Below, one piece after another: positions 1,901-46,822 of a stretch of DNA of 64,000 bases. The notes under the pieces were generated by a model, which saw nothing but the letters and a program-made list of their open reading frames with translations, had not been told where the DNA came from and did not search any database. A program made the position numbers and the translations under genes. Source of the DNA: a virus; UHGV virus genome UHGV-0326994. One strand, 5' to 3'. Position 1 is the first letter of the stretch. Each line of letters begins with the position of its first letter.

Positions 1901-4468
1901 TTAAGCAGTTCTTACCCAAGCCATTAACTTGTAGAACTGGTTAGTAACACTAAATGCTGAACCAGAACCTGTGCTACCAGTGTTACCACTAACTGTGTGG
2001 CTGTGAGCACCAATACCTACAGAGTGGGAATGGTCGCCAGCACCACTTGTAGTACCAGACCAAGTGTGTGTATGGTTACCAGTTGTGTTAGTGTTAGGGA
2101 ATTTATTGTCTCTTCTGTCAAGCCAGTCAAGTGTTCTAGGGAGACTGTTACCAACGGTTGTATAACCATACAAAGCATCACCACCATTAACTAATAACAG
2201 GCCTAAGTGGTGAGCATGGTTACCAGCAGCACTTGTTGTACCACTTACAGAGTGAGTATGCCCACCCGTACTGTTAGTCCCCTTCGTACCATAATCAAAA
2301 GATGAAGTGGTAGCAGAGAAACTATGAGTGTGTGCTGGTAAGTTACCAACAGACAACGTCACAGAGTCTGAACCACCAGTTGTAGCAACATCTGAACCAT
2401 TTGCTGCTGCAATTCTGATAGTTCTCCCAACACCATTGTTCAGGTACGTCCAAGTTAATCCAGGAAGTGCTGTATTAGGGTCAACATTACTGTTAAACCA
2501 CGTTACAATACCTACTGGATAGATTTTATTAAGGTCTGTAGAGTCACTTACTGCCTGTGCAATCTTCTGGTCAGTCTCAGCTTTAGTGTATGCACCGATA
2601 TCTGAAGGGGTTGGTTTCAAGAGACTAGTATAATAATAAGCAATTGTCCCAGCAACATAGCCAGATGGAGCACTGTCAGATGTCTCTGGGGTTTCAAACA
2701 GTTGTACTGTTGCATTATCTGATGACTGAACCCTAGCTGTCGTAGCATTTTGGTAGTTACCAGTTTTGCAATAGATGTCATAATTATCACCAGATGTATT
2801 AACATAGCCAACTTCAAGTACAGTACCATTCGGTGAGTTTTTCCAAGCTACAACATTTAAACCTTTTGGTTTGTTATTCCCTGTTCTAAGAACAATTTCC
2901 GTTTTACAAGCTTGGTCAGGTGTATTATAGTTGAACCCAGACCCACCAAACCACTCGATTACTGCTGTTGATGTTGCTTGTGGCATAGTGACAGTAGCAA
3001 TCTTAGACCATTTAGCCGTACCACTGATATTAAACCCAGTGCTCCTTACTCTTAGATACCTATTATCTGCTGATGACTTGTTATAGTATCGCCCATCAAT
3101 GTTAGTCCAATCAGAAGGTTGAACTTGACCAGTGATAGCAAAATTCTTGTTAGCCACAATTGCTGATGATTCAAGGGCAATTTGAGTGCCAGAGGAGCTG
3201 TTGTTCAAAGTAACCACGTTAGAGTTATTTCCCCCCACACCAATCCACCATCTAGAGGTGTGTGTGGTATCAACACCACGGATATACAAAGGCTGATTTT
3301 GTGTTAAATTCTTCACAATCAAACCTTCATTGTTAGCAACAATAGTTTGTGTATTTGTGAAAGTATTAGCCACATTAATTTTAGCAAGATTACTCAAAGT
3401 GGCTGCTGGAATGTATCTAGAGTCAATGTTAGACCAATCAGAAGGTTGAACTTGACCACCAATTTGGACTGTTCTGCTCATGGTAATGGTGTTACCTAGT
3501 GAGATTTGTGTTTTTGCTAAATAGTTATAGATGTTTACAATATTCTCATCACCGTCATTACCAATGTACCACTTATTAGTTCCATCTGACTTTCTTGCTT
3601 GGATGTACAAAGCCGCAGTTGTATCTACATTTTGAATAGTAATAGCATTAGCATTCTTCTTAATAACAAAGTTAGTGAAAGTATTAGAGCCACTAAATGT
3701 GTTATTACCAGCTAACTGTGCAAATCTCTGATTAGCTACTGTCTGGGTAAAATATCTAGCATCTAAGTTAGCAAAACTTGAAGGTTGAACTTGACCAGCA
3801 ATTTGAAGAGTCCTGTTGACTGTCACCAAATTCTCTAAAATAGCAATTGAAACGTCGGACTTTACATTCTTTAATACAAGATTATGTGTACCTCTATTAT
3901 CATTACCTAGATACCATCTGTTAGTACCATCTGCATCTTGACCACGAAGATAGAGTGGAGCACCTTGAGTGATATTTTTAATAATGAGTGCTTCATTGTC
4001 AGAGAGAATAGCTTGAGTACCCCTAAAGGTATTATTCACAGCTAGTCTTGCATACCTTGCATCATTCTCTTCATTAGTTCTCATGCCAAGCTCATTAGGA
4101 CTTGGTTTATTCAGAGTATGATAGACAGTTGCTGACCTTGAAGCATCTGCAATAGTCAGTTTAAGACCATTTGCGTTAATTTTAAAAGTCTTTAAAACAT
4201 CACCAATATTAATCTCAGAAGAGCCTGTTGGGTTAAATACTACCTTACCACCATAAAGTAACTTAACAATCCCTAAGTCACCCGTCATAGTGCTACCAGC
4301 AATCTGAACAAATCTTTCAAGTTTAAAAGATGCTAAGAAGTCTTGATAGGTCATTCGACGGTCTTCATCACCCAGCATTTCAGGTCTCTTTTTAACTCTG
4401 ACATGAAGAAGGTCGTCTGAACGGATTGTGTCGATTGAGTTTAATTCACTCAACTTGTAATCTGCCAT
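1901..4468 (-). CDS. long tail fibre protein with His-x-His receptor-binding tip
   Basis: Start moved to the ATG at 4468 ([10 protein letters not shown]..., preceded by GAGGAAA RBS); repeated beta-rich segments; C-terminal [35 protein letters not shown] motifs; C-terminus paralogous to the 4515-5702 product. Confidence 0.75.
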
Positions 4469-4480
4469 TATAAATTTTCC

Positions 4481-4506
4481 TCTAAAAAGGGGCTTTATAG
4501 CCCCTG
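4481..4506 (-). terminator. terminator-like hairpin between the two tail fibre genes
   Basis: aggggct-ttat-agcccct followed on the minus strand by TTTTTAGAGG. Confidence 0.55.
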
Positions 4507-4514
4507 TAAAGAAA

Positions 4515-5702
4515 TTAAGCTGTTCTCTGCCATACATACAGTACGAAGGATGGCTGCTCAATGTTGAAAGCTTGTCCACCACCAACACTATTAGTGTTCC
4601 CGCTATGCGTATGTTCAGAAGAAGAAACTGTTACAGTACCATTATGTGTATGCGAACCAATACCAACTGTGTGGCTGTGAGCACCAATACCTACTGTATG
4701 GTTGTGGTTACCTGTTGTGTTGGTTGTGACACTGAAAGAGTGTGTGTGTGCACCAGCGACTTCACAGACAGCATCTGCTGAGTACCATGATTGGTCATTC
4801 CTTGTAGACCAAACCATTGCAGGTCTTTCCGATAGACCACCACCTGCTTCATATGTCAATCTGTGGTTGTGAGCACCAGCAGTACTTGTTGACCCACTAC
4901 CAACATGGTTGTGGTTACCTGTTGTGTTAGTAGTCTTTGTTCCATAATCAAAAGAGTTGGTAGTCTTAGTTCCATAATCAAAAGCTGAAATTGACACAGT
5001 TGCATTATGAGTGTGAGCGCCACCACTAAGAGATACAGAGTGGGAGTGCTGAGGCATATTATTAACTGACAAAGTAACAGTTGAAGCACCAAATACAGAA
5101 CCTGCTGGTCTTGTGTCAGAGTCATAACCAACCAATGCTCTACCCTTTGAAACTAACTCCCAAGTACCTCCACAAATTAAATATGTAGAAGGGTTTGCAG
5201 AGTTCATAGAAAGATGAATAGTACCTACTGGATAAGAAGCCTGAACAGCCTTGTACAAGTTATTTACTGCTCTTGCTGTAGCGTACTTATTTGCATCTTC
5301 ATTATAAAGGTCAGATGTTGTCCAGTTCTGAACATTACTTAAGCCAACCTGTGCCTTAGTTGTATTGTGTGGGTTACTCTTATCCTTGATATGTTGTTGG
5401 ACAAGATTATTAACCTCTTCTGAAGACATAATCTGTAGATTTGCTCTTGCCTCAGCTACATTGACAATATCTGATAAGTTATTTGCAGCGACTAACTGGA
5501 GAGCATTAATAACATTATCTAAACCAATTTGTGTTTTAGTAACACCATGAGGGTTATTTCTTAGGCTTGAGTGTGGAGCAAGTAATTGCTCAAGAGTACA
5601 CCTTTTATCCTCAATACCCTGCTTAAGATGGAAGATATCGCTAAGGTCAATTGGTAAGGCTGCTTGAGGCAAGGCACTAATTTGAATTTCACCTACTGCC
5701 AT
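4515..5702 (-). CDS. tail fibre protein (tail-collar-like domain plus His-x-His tip)
   Basis: 395 aa; [15 protein letters not shown]...[14 protein letters not shown] collar-like motif; [32 protein letters not shown]; internal duplication FDYGTKTTN x2. Confidence 0.75.
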
Positions 5703-16228: not shown

Positions 16229-16828
16229 TTATTTTACCCCTTTGGAGTCTACATCTAGATGGATAGTATATTCTGGTGGCTCTTGTCCTTCTTCGTAAAC
16301 TAATTCACCATCCACAATGACACGTTCAATAATACTTCCACGCTCATCTTTCAGGACTGAATTTTTTACAAGAGTTACAACAAGAGGTGCAGAATTTTCG
16401 AAATCTGTATTGAGATAAGTATAGTCATTCGGTATTGCTCCAGTGTCTAGTACTGTAGCCCCTGTTTCTTCAAGGATTAAATCTCTGACTGAACTCATCT
16501 CTAATCGTTGTTTAAGCTCAAGCATGATGCTGTGAGCACCTTTACCATTTACCGTAATCAATACAGGAATCTGAAAAGCAATTCTGTAGCAAACTACATC
16601 ATCTTCAACAAATTTATCAAGAACCCAACCATAAGGTGTTGCAGCATCTTGACAATATACGGTAATAAATGGCTGGTCAGGTTTTAAACCTTTGTCATTT
16701 GAGTTATCAGAAGGGTAAGCTCTAATTACGTTTGGTCTATTATTTTTATCACGAGCTAGTCTGTGACCAATAACATCCACTAAGGTTCTAACTAGACCTT
16801 TTTCAAGTTCTGCTGTTTCTAACTGCAT
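16229..16828 (-). CDS. structural protein (head-tail joining region), unknown
   Basis: 199 aa ORF between capsid and sheath genes. Confidence 0.3.
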   Translation of the reverse strand: MQLETAELEKGLVRTLVDVIGHRLARDKNNRPNVIRAYPSDNSNDKGLKPDQPFITVYCQDAATPYGWVLDKFVEDDVVCYRIAFQIPVLITVNGKGAHSIMLELKQRLEMSSVRDLILEETGATVLDTGAIPNDYTYLNTDFENSAPLVVTLVKNSVLKDERGSIIERVIVDGELVYEEGQEPPEYTIHLDVDSKGVK

Positions 16829-17204
16829 TCATTTTATCCCTTCTAATAATGATATATTCATAATGGGACGTATGGGCTAATTGCTGTGACCAATCCATAG
16901 TCATAAATACTTCATACTCATGACCATCAATCATAACAATGTCAGACTCATTCCACTCTACATCGTCTGAAGTTCTAAGTTTATATGTGGTATATAGGAT
17001 TCTTGTATCGGTAAGTCTAATACCTTCCGGTAAAGCAATCTGTGTACCATTCTTTACAGAACCTTTGATATATGGCTGGATATTACCTTTGCAGTTAACC
17101 TCAACAATATCTTGTGAAGCTACCCAATCACCATCATCATTATAATAACCATCTTCAGAGACTTTACGCTTTACTATAAAGCTGTGTCTGTTTAAGAGTC
17201 TCAT
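16803..17204 (-). CDS. structural protein (head-tail joining region), unknown
   Basis: 133 aa ORF. Confidence 0.3.
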   Translation of the reverse strand: MRLLNRHSFIVKRKVSEDGYYNDDGDWVASQDIVEVNCKGNIQPYIKGSVKNGTQIALPEGIRLTDTRILYTTYKLRTSDDVEWNESDIVMIDGHEYEVFMTMDWSQQLAHTSHYEYIIIRRDKMNAVRNSRT

Positions 17205-17683
17205 TTCTTAATACCCTTCTTAGTAGAAATTTTATAAGCAAGGTTATCCCTTAAGTCACCTGTCTCAACAAGAGGTGCATTAAAGCCTTTTTTCTTGACT
17301 GTGGAAGGTGCGTTAGGAGGGAGGATAGCAGAATTACCAAAGCCCCTTTTAATTGCCTTTTGAGCATTCTTTGCAAATGCTTCTAAGGTATTTGAAGGGT
17401 CTGTGTTGAGACTGCTAAGTTGCTTATATAGATTCTTCTTAGTCTGCTCTAACAAGGTCTGTCTGTTTAGCATCATAGTGATTTCAAACAACCTACGATA
17501 TACTTTACCAGAAGCTGAAGGAACCCCAATAACTTCTTGTAAATACATTAAAGCAGGATAAGAAAAACCAGAGCTATGTTGACCTTGTTCTTGAAAATAC
17601 CCAACTTGAGCATTAGCCGTTTGCAAGTTCTTCATAGCCCCGACTAATTTTGCTCTAGCGGGGTGAATAACCCTTTTAACCAT
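17201..17683 (-). CDS. head-tail connector/adaptor protein (putative)
   Basis: 160 aa ORF; position only. Confidence 0.3.
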   Translation of the reverse strand: MVKRVIHPARAKLVGAMKNLQTANAQVGYFQEQGQHSSGFSYPALMYLQEVIGVPSASGKVYRRLFEITMMLNRQTLLEQTKKNLYKQLSSLNTDPSNTLEAFAKNAQKAIKRGFGNSAILPPNAPSTVKKKGFNAPLVETGDLRDNLAYKISTKKGIKK

Positions 17684-23352: not shown

Positions 23353-24969
23353 TCAACGTCTAAGCCCCTCATATGGGTTTCCCCTCACTAAGTCTGTGTG
23401 AGCGCCCATTGATGGTGGCTTGAATAATTTAACTTCGTTAAGACTGTTGAAAGCATCACTGGTAGCATCCACTTGGTCATCTTTAGTTTTACCATCACCA
23501 CAAAAGCCTTCAAGCTCTTGGAAGTAAGCTTCATTCCAACTACCTCTCAAGACTTTTACAAGCCCAGCTTCAGAAGCAGCAGAAAACCCCGCAAATCGGG
23601 TAACTTTGTCTTTGTTTGTTGGTTTAGCTCTTGCTCGATAACCTTTCTCGGCAAGTTTCCTGATGAGGGATGTTGCGTAGGATTTACCAGCAGCGCCTGG
23701 GTCTTGAGGGATAAAAATACCAGTTCGCTTACCGTCACTTTCAGCAGTCAAATTAATTTGTGTTTCGACTCCAGAGGGTCTATCTCTAAATCTTACTACA
23801 TCAATGATATAATAGCAACCGTCTTTTTTAGATTTACCCATCTTAACACCTGCTGTCCAGTCTGGATTAGGGTTAATCTCAGATGGTAAAGTTGCTGCTA
23901 AGTCCCATGCTCTGACATCGAATATGTCTTCTGGGAGTGAATCAACAATCTCACACCACTGTCTTTGCCAATAGTTTGAACCTTCTGCACGAGCCTTCCA
24001 GTTACCGAAGCGAAGTCTTGCAACGTTTACAGGGGTGTTGTTTTCCAACTTACCACGATACTTTGGTTCTAAGAAGTCAAGAATTGGGTTATCATCAATC
24101 GTACCAGAGATGAAGGTGTATGTTTGAGGAATCTCAAGAGGGAACATTTCAAGAATCTTGTCTCTTTCCCAATCAGAGACCATCACACCATCATTCATCA
24201 CATACCAACGGATACGACCACACTTTTCAGGGTCTGGATAACCTTCTTCATCTAAGAATGGTTCTACCCAATCATAAATAAAATGGTCTCTGTCTGGGTT
24301 CATGGAAATCTTCATGTATGAGTCACCTTCAGCACCAGAACGTAGACGAGTCTGTAGGTATGAAATCTGTGAAGCAGAGAAGTGTGTACCTTCGTCAAAG
24401 TAAATAGCTGAGTACTCAATACCCTGATGACCTTCAGCGTGCTTTTCAAGTTCTAGATAGGTGAACTTGATAGTTGCCCCAGAAGGGAATGTGATAGTCA
24501 TCTTCTGCTCGTGAGGAACCCCACCAAACTTGCCAAACAGTTTCTTTGCAGCAGGCCACAAACCACCTTGTAACTGTGTCGTGTTTCGACGGAAATATAC
24601 AGCATTATAATTAGGGTCTTCGATAAATCTTAAAGAGTCCATTAATAATGCAGCAGTTTTACCAGCACCAGCAGCACCACCATATAGAACCAAGTCAGCA
24701 TTGGTATTTAAAAAGACCTCTTGAGAACCCGGCTGAGGGGCTACATAATTCTTATCAGTCATTAATTTGAAGATAAGTCTAACTTGGTCTGGTGTGTATC
24801 TTAATAAAGTCAGAATTTGAGTTGGAAGGAATTTAGAGGGGTCTTTACCGAATGATTTAATAATTTCTTTTACTTCATCAGAAAGCCCCAACTCTCCAGC
24901 TAGGACTTTCCTAACATCTTCCACTCGCTTCTGCTTAACAGCGTTTAAGTCCATTAAGCACCTCCGCAA
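23353..24969 (-). CDS. terminase large subunit
   Basis: 538 aa; Walker A VLYGGAAGAGKT; nuclease-type C-terminal region. Confidence 0.85.
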   Translation of the reverse strand: MRRCLMDLNAVKQKRVEDVRKVLAGELGLSDEVKEIIKSFGKDPSKFLPTQILTLLRYTPDQVRLIFKLMTDKNYVAPQPGSQEVFLNTNADLVLYGGAAGAGKTAALLMDSLRFIEDPNYNAVYFRRNTTQLQGGLWPAAKKLFGKFGGVPHEQKMTITFPSGATIKFTYLELEKHAEGHQGIEYSAIYFDEGTHFSASQISYLQTRLRSGAEGDSYMKISMNPDRDHFIYDWVEPFLDEEGYPDPEKCGRIRWYVMNDGVMVSDWERDKILEMFPLEIPQTYTFISGTIDDNPILDFLEPKYRGKLENNTPVNVARLRFGNWKARAEGSNYWQRQWCEIVDSLPEDIFDVRAWDLAATLPSEINPNPDWTAGVKMGKSKKDGCYYIIDVVRFRDRPSGVETQINLTAESDGKRTGIFIPQDPGAAGKSYATSLIRKLAEKGYRARAKPTNKDKVTRFAGFSAASEAGLVKVLRGSWNEAYFQELEGFCGDGKTKDDQVDATSDAFNSLNEVKLFKPPSMGAHTDLVRGNPYEGLRR

Positions 24970-24975
24970 ATAGAA

Positions 24976-25176
24976 TTATTCAGAGTCTGTAGCAGTCTCT
25001 TCTTTCTTAACTTTGAACTTTGCATCAACAGCATCAAGAAGTTCATCCATAGATGCTTCTTTGATATCGATACCAGTGGCTACAGATAGTCTGTCTGCAA
25101 TTGCCATGATAGTATTCTGCATAAACTCTAACTTCTTGTTAGCTTCATAAAGTTCTTTATAAACGGTCTCGCTCAT
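24976..25176 (-). CDS. small protein upstream of terminase (function unknown)
   Basis: 66 aa; RBS GGAGAAAACATAATG; preceded by terminator hairpin. Confidence 0.35.
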   Translation of the reverse strand: MSETVYKELYEANKKLEFMQNTIMAIADRLSVATGIDIKEASMDELLDAVDAKFKVKKEETATDSE

Positions 25177-25572: not shown

Positions 25573-26307
25573 TTATTTCTGTAATGCGCTCTTCATTTCT
25601 GGTGTTGCAATAGTGTCAATCACACCAGTTTTACAAGCATCATCAAACCAGTCTGGTAAGATACCTGCTAAGAACCCATTGATATTCGTTTTAAGGTACT
25701 CTGCAATAAGGGCAGCTTCTTCTTCAATCATTTGCACAACTTCATCTGCATAAGCTGTAATCTTTGAGATACCTTCATTAATCTTACTAACAGCCTGATT
25801 AGCTAAATCAGAAACAGTATCAAGACCTTTGTCAATAGCATCTTGTAAGTCACTTAATACGTCATTGACGCTGTCTAATGTGCCGTTAATAGCATCAATA
25901 GCTTTTTGACCATACTCTGTAGCAACACCCATGATACCGCTGAATGGTGTACAACCAACTTGTTCTCCCGCTGCACCCATAACATTGGAATACCCCTTTG
26001 CTACCTGCATACGTGATGAAAACTCGTCAATAGACTTTTGACCGTAGTCTGTTAGGGTCTTAGTAGTTGCTGTAGTGCTTGTCAGACTAGTTGTAAAGCT
26101 GTTTAGAAGGACTGTTGTAAGTCCAGCGGCAACAAGTTTTTCCTTCATTGTAGGGTCTGTTACAGAGCTAATAGAGCTTACAAGTGATGTAGAGGCAGAT
26201 ACGGTTCCACCGAGAACTGCTGCACCAGTAATAAGTGGGTTAGAAAACCCTTTACCGGTTTTTAAGAGATTAAAAATCTCCTTACCTTGTTCTGTCATCT
26301 CTTTCAT
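25573..26307 (-). CDS. hypothetical S/T-rich protein embedded in tRNA array
   Basis: 244 aa ORF between tRNA-Ser and tRNA-Phe. Confidence 0.4.
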   Translation of the reverse strand: MKEMTEQGKEIFNLLKTGKGFSNPLITGAAVLGGTVSASTSLVSSISSVTDPTMKEKLVAAGLTTVLLNSFTTSLTSTTATTKTLTDYGQKSIDEFSSRMQVAKGYSNVMGAAGEQVGCTPFSGIMGVATEYGQKAIDAINGTLDSVNDVLSDLQDAIDKGLDTVSDLANQAVSKINEGISKITAYADEVVQMIEEEAALIAEYLKTNINGFLAGILPDWFDDACKTGVIDTIATPEMKSALQK

Positions 26308-40353: not shown

Positions 40354-40902
40354 ATGGAAAAAGATAACTTAAAAGAAGTTGAAGGTAACTACCTAGTACT
40401 TGACTGGAGTGATGTTAGAGAAGCACTTTCTAAAGAAAGTCTTGGCATACTAGAACAGCTTGTCTTCTCGGTACGACATATCAGAGAAGTGAAGAATGGT
40501 AAAGAGCCACTTGAAGGAATCTTTGTAGAAAAGTCTTATCCATTCTATGAAGACACTTTACAGAAAGTTAAAATGTACTTTAAACAGAAGAACCGTAAAG
40601 TGGTCACTATGGTATCTCTTGGTGGACAGAATATGTCTGTGATGGAAGATATCAACCCTAAGAGACCGAGTAAAGGTGTTTGTATAAAAATCACAGGTCA
40701 TGAAGAGTATATCTCAGTGGATGACTTTAGTGCATTCTGTAATGGCTCTTGTGTCTTTAATGGTTTTCACTATGATATCCGAGTGTACCCAATCAAGGGA
40801 GATGATATCATGATGCAGGTATTCGATAACAACAATGGATTCACTCATTTTTATCAGACCACCAAGTCATCACTAAAGACAGTTCTGGAAACACTGACTT
40901 AA
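40354..40902 (+). CDS. hypothetical protein
   Basis: Start moved to the ATG just after the upstream stop; last plus-strand gene; terminator follows. Confidence 0.35.
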   Translation: MEKDNLKEVEGNYLVLDWSDVREALSKESLGILEQLVFSVRHIREVKNGKEPLEGIFVEKSYPFYEDTLQKVKMYFKQKNRKVVTMVSLGGQNMSVMEDINPKRPSKGVCIKITGHEEYISVDDFSAFCNGSCVFNGFHYDIRVYPIKGDDIMMQVFDNNNGFTHFYQTTKSSLKTVLETLT

Positions 40903-40911
40903 AATATCTTA

Positions 40912-40948
40912 AGAGCCTCCTTAATTGGGGGCTTTTTAATTTTTATAA
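40912..40948 (+). terminator. rho-independent terminator at the end of the plus-strand unit
   Basis: agcctcc-ttaatt-gggggct then ttttaatttttat. Confidence 0.6.
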
Positions 40949-41282
40949 AATTTTATCGGTTGTCCCAACCTCTGGGTCACCATCATATGTGAACAAAATA
41001 TCTACCCTTCTTAACAACCTTCTTAATCTTACTCTCTATATAGTTATATAGTACTATATAGTATCTTAGTATCTATCTAGTGGTCTTAATAGCCATCTGT
41101 ATAACCCTTCTAACTAGCCCTCTAAACACTCTTCTAACAAGCCTTCTTAACAACCTATACAATCACCTTAACCACCTCTCTATACCCTCTTAGAAGCTCC
41201 TATACACCTCTTAATCTCTATGTCAGCTATGATACCCTCTATAGGTGTTCACTAGGTATTACTAAGCCTCTATATAGACTGT

Positions 41283-41790
41283 TTTAACAAACTTAACAGG
41301 AATATCTTTACAGACCTTATCTCACAAGGTCTAACACGGTACTAACAAGGTATCTTATAAGCCTGTTTCCACCTGTATTTTTAAAAGACTGTCTAGGTAA
41401 TTATTCAGAATTTTAAAATTTTTATAAAATAGGACTATCAAGTCATTTTTTAGGGTCTTTGAAGGAACTGAAAAATATCTGTAGAAGATGTATATCTGCT
41501 TGGTAGCCCTTAACATCCCTGTAACATCCCCTTTGCAGAATTTTAAAATATCCTTAACAATCTCTTAACAGCTCTTACACCTTCTTAACATCTCTTCAGA
41601 GGTCTTAACAGTTTCTTAACAGGACTAACAAGGGTGTAACAAGTTCTTAACAAGTGCTGAATAGTCTTTACAGAGGCTTAACAGATGACTAACAAGAGCT
41701 AACAAGTTAATTTTTAAGAGTTATTTTGTTAAGAAAATTAACAAGTTCCTAACAAGTGTTTAATCTTTTTAACAAGCTATTAACATGGTC
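41283..41790. repeat. iteron-like array of TAACA(A/G) direct repeats
   Basis: About 19 copies of (C)TTAACA(G/A) or CTAACAAG, densest in 41550-41790 at roughly 11-20 bp spacing. Confidence 0.6.
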
Positions 41791-41979
41791 ACTATCTCTT
41801 TCTTATCGTTCCCTTCCCCTTCTCAGTGATTCTCTAAACATACCTCTTAAAAGCTCTCTATAGCTCTTTATAAGCCCTTTTAAGCCTCTTCCTAGTATCT
41901 ACACCCCAACTGTACAGATACCTTTTTATAGAGCTTTACAGGAGCTTTAAAGGCTATGTCAAAGACTCTTACAAGGCTT

Positions 41980-42090
41980 TTACGTGGTCTTAACAGAGAT
42001 TTAACAAGGGGCTAACAAGTTGCTAACAAGTGCCTTGAAAGAATAACTATGTAGGGATTGTTAAGAAATTGTTAAGAAAATGTTAAGGGG
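41980..42090. repeat. second iteron cluster with inverted copies
   Basis: tcttaacag, tttaacaagg, ctaacaagtt, ctaacaagtg followed by inverted ttgttaag x2 and atgttaag. Confidence 0.6.
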
Positions 42091-42504
42091 GCTAGCATTT
42101 ACGTAACTTTTAAGCTACTTCAAAGTAACTTTATAGCCCCTATAACATACTTTTTAGTGACTATCAAGGGGATTGTTTAACTATTCACAAGATACTAACG
42201 AGATAATAAAGCTTATAACCTTATAAGATTCTTTTAAGCCTCTATAAAGCCCTGTAAAGAGCTTTTTAGGGTGAGTTAATGCAATCCCTTAAGTTAGGTT
42301 GATAAGGCTGTTATAGCGCTTTATAGAGCGTTTAAGGGATTGGTAACAATACCAATTAGTGGGCCATCCCCTTTCTGGGGTTATTGGCTTGTATTTAAGT
42401 TGATTTGATAAAAGGCTATAGAGTAGACTATAGAGTTATTGCTTTTAAGGTCTGATAAGATTCTGAAAAGGTGAGGAAAGGGATTGTATAAGGATTGGAT
42501 AGAT

Positions 42505-42558
42505 GTAAAAAAGCCCCTGTGAGGGGCTGTATAAAGGTATCTGGGGCTAAATAGCCCC
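42505..42558 (-). terminator. tandem GC hairpins, terminator at the end of the small-gene island
   Basis: agcccct-gtg-aggggct with TTTTTT on the minus strand, plus ggggct-aaat-agcccc. Confidence 0.65.
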
Positions 42559-42568
42559 GTTGCGTCGA

Positions 42569-42817
42569 TTAGTTGCAACCTTGCTTATTGTAGTACAGGG
42601 AGACAATCAAATCACCCCAATAATGGTAATGATACTCATCGTTCAACGCCTCTTTTACTGCATCTTTCCAGAAGTCATCAGTGGGGTTATAGTCTGGGAT
42701 AACTTGCTTGATAACTGTCTTCACTAATGAAAAGCATTCATCAGTTCCACCAATATCAAATTTAACGTCCAGAGTGTAGCAGCCATAAGAATTTACAATT
42801 GCGCGGATAGTTGCCAT
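42569..42817 (-). CDS. small-gene island protein 1
   Basis: 82 aa; preceded by type-A cassette and GGAGATTCTAAAATG. Confidence 0.45.
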   Translation of the reverse strand: MATIRAIVNSYGCYTLDVKFDIGGTDECFSLVKTVIKQVIPDYNPTDDFWKDAVKEALNDEYHYHYWGDLIVSLYYNKQGCN

Positions 42818-42883
42818 TTTAGAATCTCCAGTTTAGGATTTTATTTAGTGGGGAAGGTCATTCCCTCCCCGTTGATTAGTAAT
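42818..42883 (-). repeat. intergenic cassette, type A
   Basis: gccattttagaatctccagtttaggattttatttagtggggaaggtcattccctccccgttgat. Confidence 0.7.
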
Positions 42884-43147
42884 TTACTGCATATTGGCGT
42901 ATGTTGCAAGCCTTTTTTCGTTGTATTTTGTCAGAATCTCACAAGATAAAACATCATATTTTGTAACTGCTTTACCTTTGTCGAGGTCAAAGAATCCGAA
43001 CGCTTTACCGTCTTTGAATCCGACAACTTCGTAAGATTCTTTAACGATTTCACCATTGAACAAATCGCTTTCGATGCGGTGAAACAGTGCTACGTCTTCT
43101 TTGTCAGTTGCAATTTGTAAAAGTGTGGTCAGTTCGACGTGTTCCAT
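42884..43147 (-). CDS. small-gene island protein 2
   Basis: 87 aa; preceded by type-A cassette. Confidence 0.45.
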   Translation of the reverse strand: MEHVELTTLLQIATDKEDVALFHRIESDLFNGEIVKESYEVVGFKDGKAFGFFDLDKGKAVTKYDVLSCEILTKYNEKRLATYANMQ

Positions 43148-43212
43148 TTCGAATCTCCAGTTTAGGATTTTATTTAGTGGGGAAGGTCATTCCCTCCCCG
43201 TTGATTGACAAT
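43148..43212 (-). repeat. intergenic cassette, type A
   Basis: Near-identical copy of the 42818 cassette. Confidence 0.7.
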
Positions 43213-43743
43213 TTACAGATTTTTGATTGTCTCGTCAATATCTTTTTCAATATCTTTTAAAGTTTTTTCTAAGTTCTTGATATTGAACGTTAAACCTTCA
43301 CCGAGAGTCTTAGAGTAACCGCTAGGGCGTAAATCATGCAGCTTGATTTCTTCCACATTAGATAAGTTTACCATCTCACCATTTGCAGCATAGGCTATAG
43401 ATACAGTGTTTTCAGGCGCGTTGTAAAATTTGTTCAAGGACTTGATAGAACGTTCATAAGCCATTTTATAACCGTTTAAAAGGCTTTTAACGTGGTTGTG
43501 AACGTTTTTACACTCATCCAAGTAAATTTCTAAGAATAACGGTAATAATTCCGCGACAGCTTGCATAAAGTGAGAGACTACAACGGTTGCAACATTACGA
43601 CGATGAACGTAATAAGCCCCTTTTTCTGATTTGGTAATGGTTGCGAAATGTACACCATTACAACGAAATTCATAGGTATCTTTAACAGGCTTTGACATTA
43701 CAGCATTTGAACGAATGAAGTTGATAGCTTGAAATTTGTTCAT
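43213..43743 (-). CDS. small-gene island protein 3
   Basis: 176 aa; preceded by type-A cassette variant. Confidence 0.45.
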   Translation of the reverse strand: MNKFQAINFIRSNAVMSKPVKDTYEFRCNGVHFATITKSEKGAYYVHRRNVATVVVSHFMQAVAELLPLFLEIYLDECKNVHNHVKSLLNGYKMAYERSIKSLNKFYNAPENTVSIAYAANGEMVNLSNVEEIKLHDLRPSGYSKTLGEGLTFNIKNLEKTLKDIEKDIDETIKNL

Positions 43744-43830
43744 TTTAGAATCTCCAGTTTAGGACTTTATTTAGTGGGGAGGTTATTGCCTTCCCGTTGA
43801 TTAGTAATTTACTTGTTTTGATAGTCGATT
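43744..43830 (-). repeat. intergenic cassette, type A variant
   Basis: Same framework; hairpin variant ggggaggttattgccttccc. Confidence 0.65.
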
Positions 43831-43963: not shown

Positions 43964-44305
43964 TTAACTGATGAATATTTTTTCAGGCTTTACATAGCTG
44001 ATACGCTGACTTTTTAGCAGGTCATTCCAGATTAGCGCGGCAATATGAGAATAGCCGGATTCACGTAAAAGTTTCATTGTTTTACTTCTCGTCTCAAAGC
44101 GGCTTGCGTAGTATTCACTGTTCAAGGTTGTTTTGTTCCCTTCGTTATCTGTATGGATGATTTGCATCACTTGAAAGGGGCTTACATCCTCACCTTTATT
44201 CCACTGCTCAAAGTATTTTAGGCACTGCATAGGCGATATCTTATCACTTACTTGAGTTGACCAAGATGAACCCTCTTTATCAGTAATTACAGTTACATAA
44301 GCCAT
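43964..44305 (-). CDS. small-gene island protein 4
   Basis: 113 aa; preceded by type-A cassette. Confidence 0.45.
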   Translation of the reverse strand: MAYVTVITDKEGSSWSTQVSDKISPMQCLKYFEQWNKGEDVSPFQVMQIIHTDNEGNKTTLNSEYYASRFETRSKTMKLLRESGYSHIAALIWNDLLKSQRISYVKPEKIFIS

Positions 44306-44394
44306 TTTAGAATCTCCAGTTTAGGACTTTATTTAGTGGGGAAGGTCATTCCCTCCCCGTTGATTGACAATTTACAGATTTTTATCAGGATTGT
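44306..44394 (-). repeat. intergenic cassette, type A
   Basis: Near-identical to the 43148 copy. Confidence 0.7.
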
Positions 44395-45667: not shown

Positions 45668-45865
45668 TTATTTTTTGACAACTTTTAAAACTGCAAGATA
45701 ACCTAAGCAATAAGAATCACCGAAGAGAGTTCTCCCCATGAAAGAATCCTCTTTGATATCCTTTGCAGTGACAGTTTTTTCTACGCCGTGGGAAAGGACT
45801 ACATCACCAACTTTGATGTCTTTGATGTGTGTTGTTTCAATGGTTAAGCCGTTAATAATAGCCAT
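45668..45865 (-). CDS. small-gene island protein 7
   Basis: 65 aa; preceded by type-A cassette. Confidence 0.4.
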   Translation of the reverse strand: MAIINGLTIETTHIKDIKVGDVVLSHGVEKTVTAKDIKEDSFMGRTLFGDSYCLGYLAVLKVVKK

Positions 45866-45967
45866 TTTAGAATCTCCTAGTTTAAGGACTTTATTTAGTG
45901 GGGAAGGTCATTCCCTCCCCGTTGATGTGCAATTTAGCCTATCTAAAAATCAGTGTCAATAATTTTT
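45866..45967 (-). repeat. intergenic cassette, type A
   Basis: Type-A copy with extended tail ...gttgatgtgcaatttagcctatctaaaaatcagtgtcaat. Confidence 0.7.
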
Positions 45968-46458: not shown

Positions 46459-46731
46459 TTATACTAAATGCAGCTTTTTACCTTTTACTATGATGTAACT
46501 AGATGCGCTATTGCTGCATACATCTTGGTAAATTCTGCGCAAACGTCCTTCATAGTGTACTTTCCAACTGGTTGGAATCTTTTTCCCGTATCCTGTAGCA
46601 GTTTTTTGGAGTCCTGCAACTTGCCAATTTAAGATGTGTTGCTCAGCCCGTAAATCTTCAAAGCACATCACACCATCTACATAGTGACGCAAGGTGACAT
46701 TTAAGGTGCGACCGTTGTTAGTAGTATACAT
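46459..46731 (-). CDS. small-gene island protein 9
   Basis: 90 aa; preceded by type-A cassette. Confidence 0.45.
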   Translation of the reverse strand: MYTTNNGRTLNVTLRHYVDGVMCFEDLRAEQHILNWQVAGLQKTATGYGKKIPTSWKVHYEGRLRRIYQDVCSNSASSYIIVKGKKLHLV

Positions 46732-46822
46732 TTTCAGAATCTCCTAGTTTAAGGACTTTATTTAGTGGGGAAGGTCATTCCCTCCCCGTTGATGTGTAAT
46801 TTAACCCATCTAAAAATCAGTG
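46732..46822 (-). repeat. intergenic cassette, type A
   Basis: Near-identical to the 45866 copy, including the ctaaaaatcagtgtcaa tail. Confidence 0.7.

Follow-up and report, generated by a model that had tools for sequence, protein, structure and literature searches.

What is the role of a 1.6 kb stretch without credible genes that lies between two gene clusters transcribed towards each other? We asked this of positions 40903-42511 of the virus genome UHGV-0326994, within a stretch of 64,000 nucleotides that was analyzed as a whole (hereafter, the window) and to which all positions refer. An earlier description made from the letters alone (hereafter, the sequence-only reading) had noted TAACA repeats in this region and suggested an iteron-type replication origin or a landing pad for a DNA-binding protein. 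The window belongs to a Felixounavirus (Felix-O1-type myovirus, Ounavirinae) and is ~90% identical over the region to 256 phage records, nearly all of them named Felixounavirus or enterobacterial relatives (Escherichia, Salmonella, Shigella and Citrobacter phages). By homology with relatives, the stretch free of open reading frames (ORFs) is almost certainly the concatemer junction, holding a short direct terminal repeat (DTR) and the physical genome ends. The explanation that we favor overall, with modest confidence, is that this junction carries a protein array of ArcA type that caps the ends.

By homology, the region contains the physical ends of the genome

In agreement with the sequence-only reading, no credible ORF was found in the region, the longest being at most 53 amino acids (aa), and none of the 256 matching phage records has a credible gene there. 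Three small ORFs, at 41355-41516 (minus strand), 41080-41193 and 41756-41863 (both plus strand), were rejected as genes: they are not conserved as ORFs. Stops or frameshifts break them in most relatives, and intact versions were counted in 9-10 of the 25 close sequences (one of them the window) and in 1-2 of 5 across genera. The proposed convergent transcription boundary was also recovered, with a rho-independent terminator hairpin on either side (Table 1). A structured non-coding RNA was considered and rejected. Neither strand of the region matched an Rfam family at E <= 1, and an alifold sliding scan, the z-scores of which are inflated by the column-shuffle control and were not relied on, highlighted mainly the terminator at 40902-40976, one segment of the DTR (41651-41748) and a window-specific hairpin near 42282-42342.

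The genome ends are fixed and sequence-specific, as five independent phages place them at 41500-41514 and 42073-42092 (Table 1). Several records end there, and the region very probably represents the concatemer junction and the physical genome ends. The densest repeat arrays lie inside the DTR. By homology with Pr103Blw, NBEco005 and UAB_Phi87, the same sequence would stand at both ends of the virion DNA; the window contains a single copy, as expected for a collapsed assembly (or a concatemer). The DTRs of UAB_Phi87, Felix O1, FO1a and Pr103Blw are direct counterparts, that of UAB_Phi87 having 86.5% end-to-end identity and the same edges, flanking genes and convergent terminators. Among Felixounavirus phages the DTR lengths differ (581, ~591, 608 and 651 bp) via steps of 11 and 22 nt. 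The 608-bp terminal repeat of UAB_Phi87 is printed in a supplementary figure of PMC4837284. GenBank record JN225449.1 of the same phage (87,603 bp) is not opened at its published physical ends, and the sequence from the supplementary figure was used for mapping.

The 13-mer TGTATATCTGCTT, which occurs once in the window, adjoins the edge at which the UAB_Phi87 (41500) and Pr103Blw (41502) ends fall and may serve as a site of recognition or cutting. On the opposite side, four genera share the positions AAATGT.AA.G.GGCTA.C....CGTAA within 42080-42110 without any change. Going inwards, the sequence at either edge is TAGCCC(CC)TTAACAT; symmetric cutting at both was set aside, given that the reported cut positions vary with the method by 2-8 nt and no common geometry was established. 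Assemblies of this phage would thus open at ~42092 and close at ~41502 of the window.

Two related records are noted for their own sake. OQ845959.1 (NJ12) has a 127-bp terminal overlap from window ~41493, probably an assembler artefact, and PV390658.1 (P54) is placed in Tequatrovirus by its taxonomy line, yet its DNA is ~91% identical to the window over 40700-42700.

Phased TGTTA repeats inside the terminal repeat

TAACA occurs 30 times on the plus strand and five times on the minus strand of the region (1609 bp), which amounts to 18.6/kb versus 1.8/kb in the rest of the window, a density ~10 times the background. The search for the motif elsewhere that the sequence-only reading had proposed showed that it is concentrated here, with 13 of the 18 same-strand copies of TAACAAG in the window and 7 of the 8 copies of TAACAAGT falling inside the region. 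The most enriched k-mers were all parts of CTTAACAAG (Poisson p 1e-15 to 1e-20).

Read from the opposite strand, the TAACA repeats are direct repeats of TGTTA, spaced by 11 bp (occasionally 9-10) within sets of 2-4 and by 20, 31-33 or 39 bp between sets. The DTR holds 25 copies of the pentamer: 17 at 41511-41785, one inverted copy at 41727, four at 41991-42028 and three inverted copies at 42059-42085. The latter end 0-7 nt from the physical genome end, and at the other edge of the DTR the first copy begins 9 nt inside the end. The main array shows a best period of 10.3 bp with a coherence R of 0.82 (range 0.8-0.9), above the 99.9th percentile of random placements, and most of the related genera tested show helical phasing too.

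The repeats described earlier were thus largely borne out. The estimate of about one copy per helical turn agrees with the spacing, which is mostly exactly 11 bp. An array of ~19 TTAACA-type copies at 41283-41790 is present, with a different count (21 copies of TAACA, 15 of which fit YTAACAR). The second cluster, placed at 41980-42030 and followed by three inverted copies, was found as four copies at 41991-42024 with the three inverted ones behind them, and the tatatagt direct repeats near 41040-41070 correspond to TATATAGT at 41037, 41045 and 41055. The 11-bp inverted repeat exists as well, its arms (42282-42292 and 42332-42342) lying a few bases from where they had been put; its single-stranded form has a predicted folding energy of -13 kcal/mol (z = -2.8), and other genera conserve the repeat poorly.

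The repeats follow the site grammar of ArcA

Sites of phosphorylated ArcA (ArcA-P) consist of two 10-bp elements, ATGTTAAAAA-1-ATGTTAAAAA, with the core TGTTA and 11 bp from center to center; chromosomal sites have 2-5 elements at 11 or 22 bp, most of them 3-5, and multi-element sites are bound cooperatively by ArcA-P, ArcA being phosphorylated mainly without oxygen (PMC3798270, PMC4173790). An 18-bp information matrix was built from 115 E. coli ArcA boxes derived from chromatin immunoprecipitation, those readable in Table S3 of PMC3798270, which themselves score 9.6-21.6 bits. With this matrix, the region contained 22 boxes of at least 9 bits (13.7/kb versus 0.98/kb elsewhere), 13 of at least 12 bits (8.1/kb versus 0.19/kb, 42 times the outside density) and seven of at least 15 bits (4.35/kb versus 0.05/kb, 87 times). 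Shuffles of the region gave 0.7 boxes of at least 12 bits (maximum 4). The main array alone has ten boxes of 10.4-17.9 bits, and the two overlapping boxes at the tip, in TTGTTAAGAAATTGTTAAGAAAATGTTAA (22.6 and 22.8 bits), score above all 115 training boxes (maximum 21.6). Equivalent boxes of 20.4-22.8 bits were found in other genera at the same end of the terminus region.

Exact TGTTA-N6-TGTTA boxes gave the same picture, with 14 of the 15 in the window located in the region and one in the other 62 kb. The array shares two features with ArcA-P sites, namely two or more TGTTA direct repeats at 11 bp and matrix scores that reach the threshold of 9-10 bits. All five relatives (Mordin, Sf14, SUSP1, SUSP2 and phiEa21-4) show the enrichment as well, the last having 10.4/kb versus 0.05/kb at 12 bits. 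Consensus boxes of PmrA, PhoP, PhoB, CpxR, OmpR, KdpE and CreB had zero matches in the region, and RstA-type boxes were found only outside it. As far as can be judged from the DNA, the TGTTA array is the site grammar of OmpR/PhoB-type winged-helix regulators and, among the regulators checked, matches that of ArcA-P only.

The window has one other cluster of ArcA-type boxes, at 1868-1896 on the minus strand (TTGTTAAGATGGTGTTAA, 15.0 bits, and TTGTTGACTGATTGTTAA, 16.7 bits). The two boxes make up a site of three elements, located in the short gap that directly follows an 895-aa minus-strand gene (1901-4588).

Conservation of the repeats and flanking blocks

Across three alignable genera, the pentamer positions are conserved at 0.94 versus 0.76 for the spacers (p = 1e-9), and indels of at least 3 nt in the DTR are nearly all 10-11 or 20-23 nt long, with one of 48 nt. 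The conservation of the core and the indel sizes suggest that the pentamer and its helical phase are under selection, although slippage of the unit would also yield indels of 10-11 and 20-23 nt. Together with the phasing, these patterns support the landing pad for a DNA-binding protein that the sequence-only reading had offered as one option. An ORF-free region with the same spacing pattern, including that of the main array, is found in Mooglevirus (Mordin, Sf14) and Suspvirus (SUSP1, SUSP2). A syntenic region of 1.2 kb with CTTAACA arrays, missed by megablast, is present in the Erwinia phage phiEa21-4 (Kolesnikvirus) and carries the same edge blocks, TGTATATCTGCTT and AAATGT.AA.G.GGCTA.C.

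From these homologous blocks, the DTR of phiEa21-4 is predicted to lie at 17466..17028 of its sequence (L038), a length of ~439 bp. On the far side of this predicted DTR (16600-16990), ~15-20 copies, counted by eye, of a second motif, TTAGAAG, were observed, of which the window has weaker counterparts at 42100-42270 (CTTTTAAG, CTTATAAG and CTATAAAG).

Sequence identity was computed over 24 distinct Felixounavirus sequences, window included. The mean identity of the DTR is 0.90. The unique block to its left (40937-41499) is, at 0.96, more conserved than the DTR and than the sampled ends of flanking genes (0.77-0.95), and is also present in Mooglevirus and Suspvirus. Besides the three copies of TATATAGT (41037-41062), it contains TTTTTATAAAAT at 40940 and 41419 and seven scattered TAACA; CAGAATTTTAAAAT occurs twice, at 41406 in this block and at 41536 inside the DTR. 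The block could hold the true terminase recognition site, as an alternative seat of DNA specificity. The unique block to the right of the DTR holds the inverted repeat and a 24-nt palindromic module, GGGATTGGTAACAATACCAATTAG. This module lies outside the DTR here (42336-42359) and inside it in UAB_Phi87 (positions 369-392 of the DTR, with 24 of 24 positions matching) and, in identical form, in SUSP2 (L035); its changing position suggests a small element or indel that travels from one terminus block to another.

Terminase and candidate phage-encoded binders

The gene of the large terminase subunit (TerL; phrog_979, E = 3e-233) is located at 23353-24969, 17 kb from the terminus region. A tree in PMC4837284 puts Felix-O1-type terminases in a repeat-ended group of their own. 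No small terminase subunit was recognizable in the window, and none is listed in the recent annotation of the relative P54, so another factor must supply the DNA specificity. Just upstream of TerL on the minus strand, where the small terminase gene is usually placed, are genes for a 66-aa protein (24976-25176) and a 244-aa protein (25573-26307), an arrangement kept in phiEa21-4 (gp43-gp45). Both were rejected as small terminase: the former has no family match, and the latter is a DUF7217 coiled coil with no meaningful match in the PDB. A phmmer search for an OmpR/PhoB-type (ArcA-like) domain in all stop-to-stop segments of the window, which covers 64 of the ~88 kb of the genome, with manually entered queries, returned only noise (E > 1).

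A putative protein cap and its alternatives

We propose that the two DTR edges are the terminase cutting sites, that the second DTR copy would be made through extension from staggered nicks, and that the two convergent terminators would shut transcription out of the region. In phages of this kind (T7-type), the second repeat copy arises by extension at staggered nicks, at fixed positions (PMC5557969, PMC10438801). Within the DTR, winged-helix proteins would assemble head to tail on one face of the helix, with the strongest sites at both tips, and the resulting nucleoprotein cap would mark or organize the ends for terminase cutting and DTR duplication; after ejection, its function may extend to protecting the ends or regulating them. 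The likeliest binder would be host ArcA-P, in which case the phage ends would be linked to the oxygen state of the host, and otherwise a phage protein of the same specificity. The parts of this proposal differ in strength. The TGTTA repeats are probably protein-binding sites, as predicted from their phasing and conservation. That host ArcA-P binds them is a real possibility, to which we lean slightly less than to its opposite, and a role of the binder in terminus organization or packaging is a tentative suggestion.

Several observations weigh against this proposal. Conservation in the region peaks in the unique block 40937-41499 and not in the arrays. Depending on the method, the edges of the DTR shift by 2-8 nt, which leaves the relation between cut site and repeat without a fixed form, and the ends of the present isolate are placed by homology with relatives. 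In the array units, the favorable T before the core and A after it are each found in 21 of 35 copies; the summed flank score is -2.2 versus -2.1 at random TGTTA sites, with no ArcA excess beyond these two bases. The spacers are 50% A+T and thus richer in G+C than chromosomal ArcA sites, and natural ArcA sites have at most five elements versus 25 in this repeat. Felix-O1-type phages are routinely grown in aerated culture and ArcA-P is mainly anaerobic, so ArcA-P cannot be essential for packaging. To our knowledge, no host two-component regulator has been described to act at the terminus of a phage genome, and the literature searched contained no paper linking ArcA to phage ends.

These points bear on a rather unlikely alternative in which the DTR is a classical packaging site: the arrays would bind a phage-encoded small terminase or packaging factor, and the likeness to ArcA sites, which involves a 5-bp core and a spacing of one turn, would be coincidental. 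The arrays abut both cut sites, the unit flanks add no ArcA-specific information, and growth of the phages takes place in air, where ArcA-P levels are low; moreover, with no small terminase known for the group, an unassigned protein must give the specificity, and unannotated small genes lie upstream of TerL. On the other hand, the core is unchanged in four genera with otherwise diverged termini, whereas a phage protein that evolves together with its site would leave both more room to drift, and the phmmer search (with the queries and coverage given above) found no OmpR/PhoB-type domain in ORFs of the window. If ArcA-P is the binder, the arrays might instead act as a decoy that soaks it up, or as a redox switch by which ArcA-P silences the terminus without oxygen, the position in the DTR merely doubling the sites. 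The very high density and scores of the boxes, the cooperative binding of ArcA-P to multi-element sites and the predominance of gut bacteria among the hosts of this phage group speak for such a role. It is nevertheless improbable, as the highest-scoring boxes are found precisely at the two tips and mirror each other in orientation, which suggests a role related to the ends and is left unexplained by a decoy or switch, and a lytic phage has no clear gain from relieving host repression.

The origin suggested by the sequence-only reading fared less well than the landing pad. An initiator would bind the repeats and melt adjacent AT-rich tracts, and replication would start at or near the genome ends; the direct repeats are indeed many and phased, conserved AT-rich tracts exist at 41395-41432, 41536-41549 and 41705-41745, and the strand composition switches near 42040. 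However, the unit is a core of 5-7 bp at 11-bp spacing, not an iteron of 17-22 bp, and no initiator-like gene adjoins the region, the flanking genes belonging to families of unknown function without an initiator domain. DnaA boxes are not enriched, with no perfect box and four one-mismatch matches versus ~2 expected. Cumulative GC skew, the check suggested earlier, follows gene orientation and is confounded by transcription direction. The region is, in addition, fully accounted for as the genome terminus. No origin signal was found in the region with these tests, which could not have excluded an origin, and a search of Felix O1 papers for an origin or for repeats yielded only the length or sequence of the DTR. 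We give the origin little chance of being correct. Least probable is that the repeats have no function and arose by slippage, or by unequal recombination of one terminal copy with the other. Relatives often differ by indels of 11 and 22 nt, as such processes would produce, but the core is conserved well above the spacers, the same spacing pattern is found across genera, and the motif recurs in phiEa21-4, the terminus of which was undetected by megablast.

Comparison with known systems

The accessible parts of papers on Felixounavirus terminal repeats give their length or sequence, and none of them describes internal repeats or a link to a host regulator. The terminal repeat is thus already known for close relatives, and its internal ArcA-type architecture appears undescribed. 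Short DTRs of the T7 type likewise have fixed, sequence-specific ends and one copy per concatemer junction (PMC5557969, PMC10438801). The present repeat is three to four times longer than those of T7 (160 bp) and T3 (231 bp), and, unlike them, it belongs to a myovirus without a recognizable small terminase and carries arrays with response-regulator grammar inside the repeat. T7 also has short-repeat arrays, beside its terminal repeat.

Chromosomal ArcA-P sites of E. coli (icdA, astC and acs, among others) share the TGTTA core and the spacing of 11/22 bp, and the scores of the phage boxes are within and above their range. Unlike these, the predicted sites in the phage comprise 25 elements over ~590 bp, located at a genome end and not at a promoter, with G+C-richer spacers. 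At P1 pac, lambda cosB and SPP1 pac, the position cut by terminase is likewise flanked by short repeats, and an architectural (DNA-bending) protein of the host can be involved; these sites measure 100-200 bp, have few elements and adjoin the terminase genes. In the present phage, in contrast, TerL is 17 kb away, and packaging is of the DTR type, not cos or headful. Iteron origins of plasmids and phages and parC-type centromeres have many phased direct repeats that nucleate a protein array, as would be the case here. They differ in that no Rep or ParR-type gene is adjacent to the DTR, in unit length and core, and in that a lytic phage needs no partition.

Features of the terminus region and neighboring genes

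The coordinates of the features are given in Table 1. On the minus strand, six copies of a ~65-nt leader, ATCAACGGGGAGGGAATGACCTTCCCCACTAAATAAAGTCCTAAACTGGAGATTCTAAAATG, were observed directly upstream of the start codons of small genes, each with a GC hairpin followed by a Shine-Dalgarno sequence. These leaders probably correspond to the 26-bp 'start-associated sequence' of phage Mordin.

Table 1 Features of the terminus region and its surroundings, with the genome ends of related phages projected onto the window.
Feature	Position	Strand	Remarks
Rho-independent terminator, ends the plus-strand gene cluster	40911-40936	+	10-pair stem then T run; terminator annotated at the same place in AYO145A and Mordin
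Unique non-coding block left of DTR	40937-41499		Mean identity 0.96; adjoins DTR at the conventional left genome end
Invariant 13-mer TGTATATCTGCTT	41489-41501	+	Directly outside one DTR edge; identical in four genera including Erwinia phage phiEa21-4
DTR, ~590 bp	41500/41502 to 42084/42092		One copy in window; placed by record ends and mapped ends of relatives
Main array, 17 TGTTA direct repeats	41510-41786	-	Sets of 2-3 at 9-11 bp; 20-39 bp between sets
Repeat-poor middle of DTR	41790-41985		Without TAACA or TGTTA; motifs of type CTnTAnAG or CTTTTAAG; direct-repeat families D8, D10, D11, D13
Block of four TGTTA, exact 11-bp spacing	41990-42029	-	Boxes of 17.9, 10.5 and 11.8 bits; copy number varies among relatives via 11- or 22-nt indels
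Three inverted TGTTA repeats, TTGTTAAGAAATTGTTAAGAAAATGTTAA	42058-42086	+	Abut physical genome end; two overlapping boxes, 22.6 and 22.8 bits
Conserved block across the other DTR edge, AAATGTTAAGGGGGC/TAGCATTTACGTAAC (slash, edge)	42080-42110		Record starts of Pr103Blw and NBEco005 map to 42092
Unique non-coding block right of DTR	42093-42511		Mean identity 0.78, least conserved part; variable patch 42330-42390; conventional right genome end
Rho-independent terminator, ends the minus-strand gene island	42512-42528	-	7-pair stem then T run; terminator annotated at the same place in AYO145A and Mordin
Leader copies	42805-42900, 43137-43232, 43731-43826, 44293-44388, 45853-45948, 46719-46814	-	81% mean column identity
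Ends of Pr103Blw	42092..41502		Annotation of a 581-bp "short direct terminal repeat" at each record end, PhageTerm
Ends of NBEco005	42092..41502		651-bp exact terminal overlap
Ends of GE_vB_7A	42086 / 41504		Record ends
Ends of MET-P1-301	~41514 / ~42073		Record ends
Ends of UAB_Phi87	42084..41500		Determined by Bal31 digestion and run-off sequencing; 86.5% identity over the entire repeat

Implications for Felix-O1-type phages

A phased array with ArcA grammar is kept across four genera of phages that infect Escherichia, Salmonella, Shigella, Citrobacter and Erwinia. In the fullest form of this reading, which we put forward tentatively, the DTR of Ounavirinae may be built of ~25 ArcA elements, with the strongest ArcA boxes known at both tips, by which the phage recruits or soaks up ArcA. 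If this is true, end recognition, end protection or the timing of development would be tied to the anaerobic state of the gut. Binding of ArcA-P would be a novel way for phage genome ends to depend on a host factor and would help to explain how DNA is marked in a phage group without a recognizable small terminase subunit. It would also offer a molecular handle on phage behavior that differs between aerated culture and the oxygen-poor gut, and would bear on the use of Felix-O1-type phages in the biocontrol of Salmonella and E. coli.

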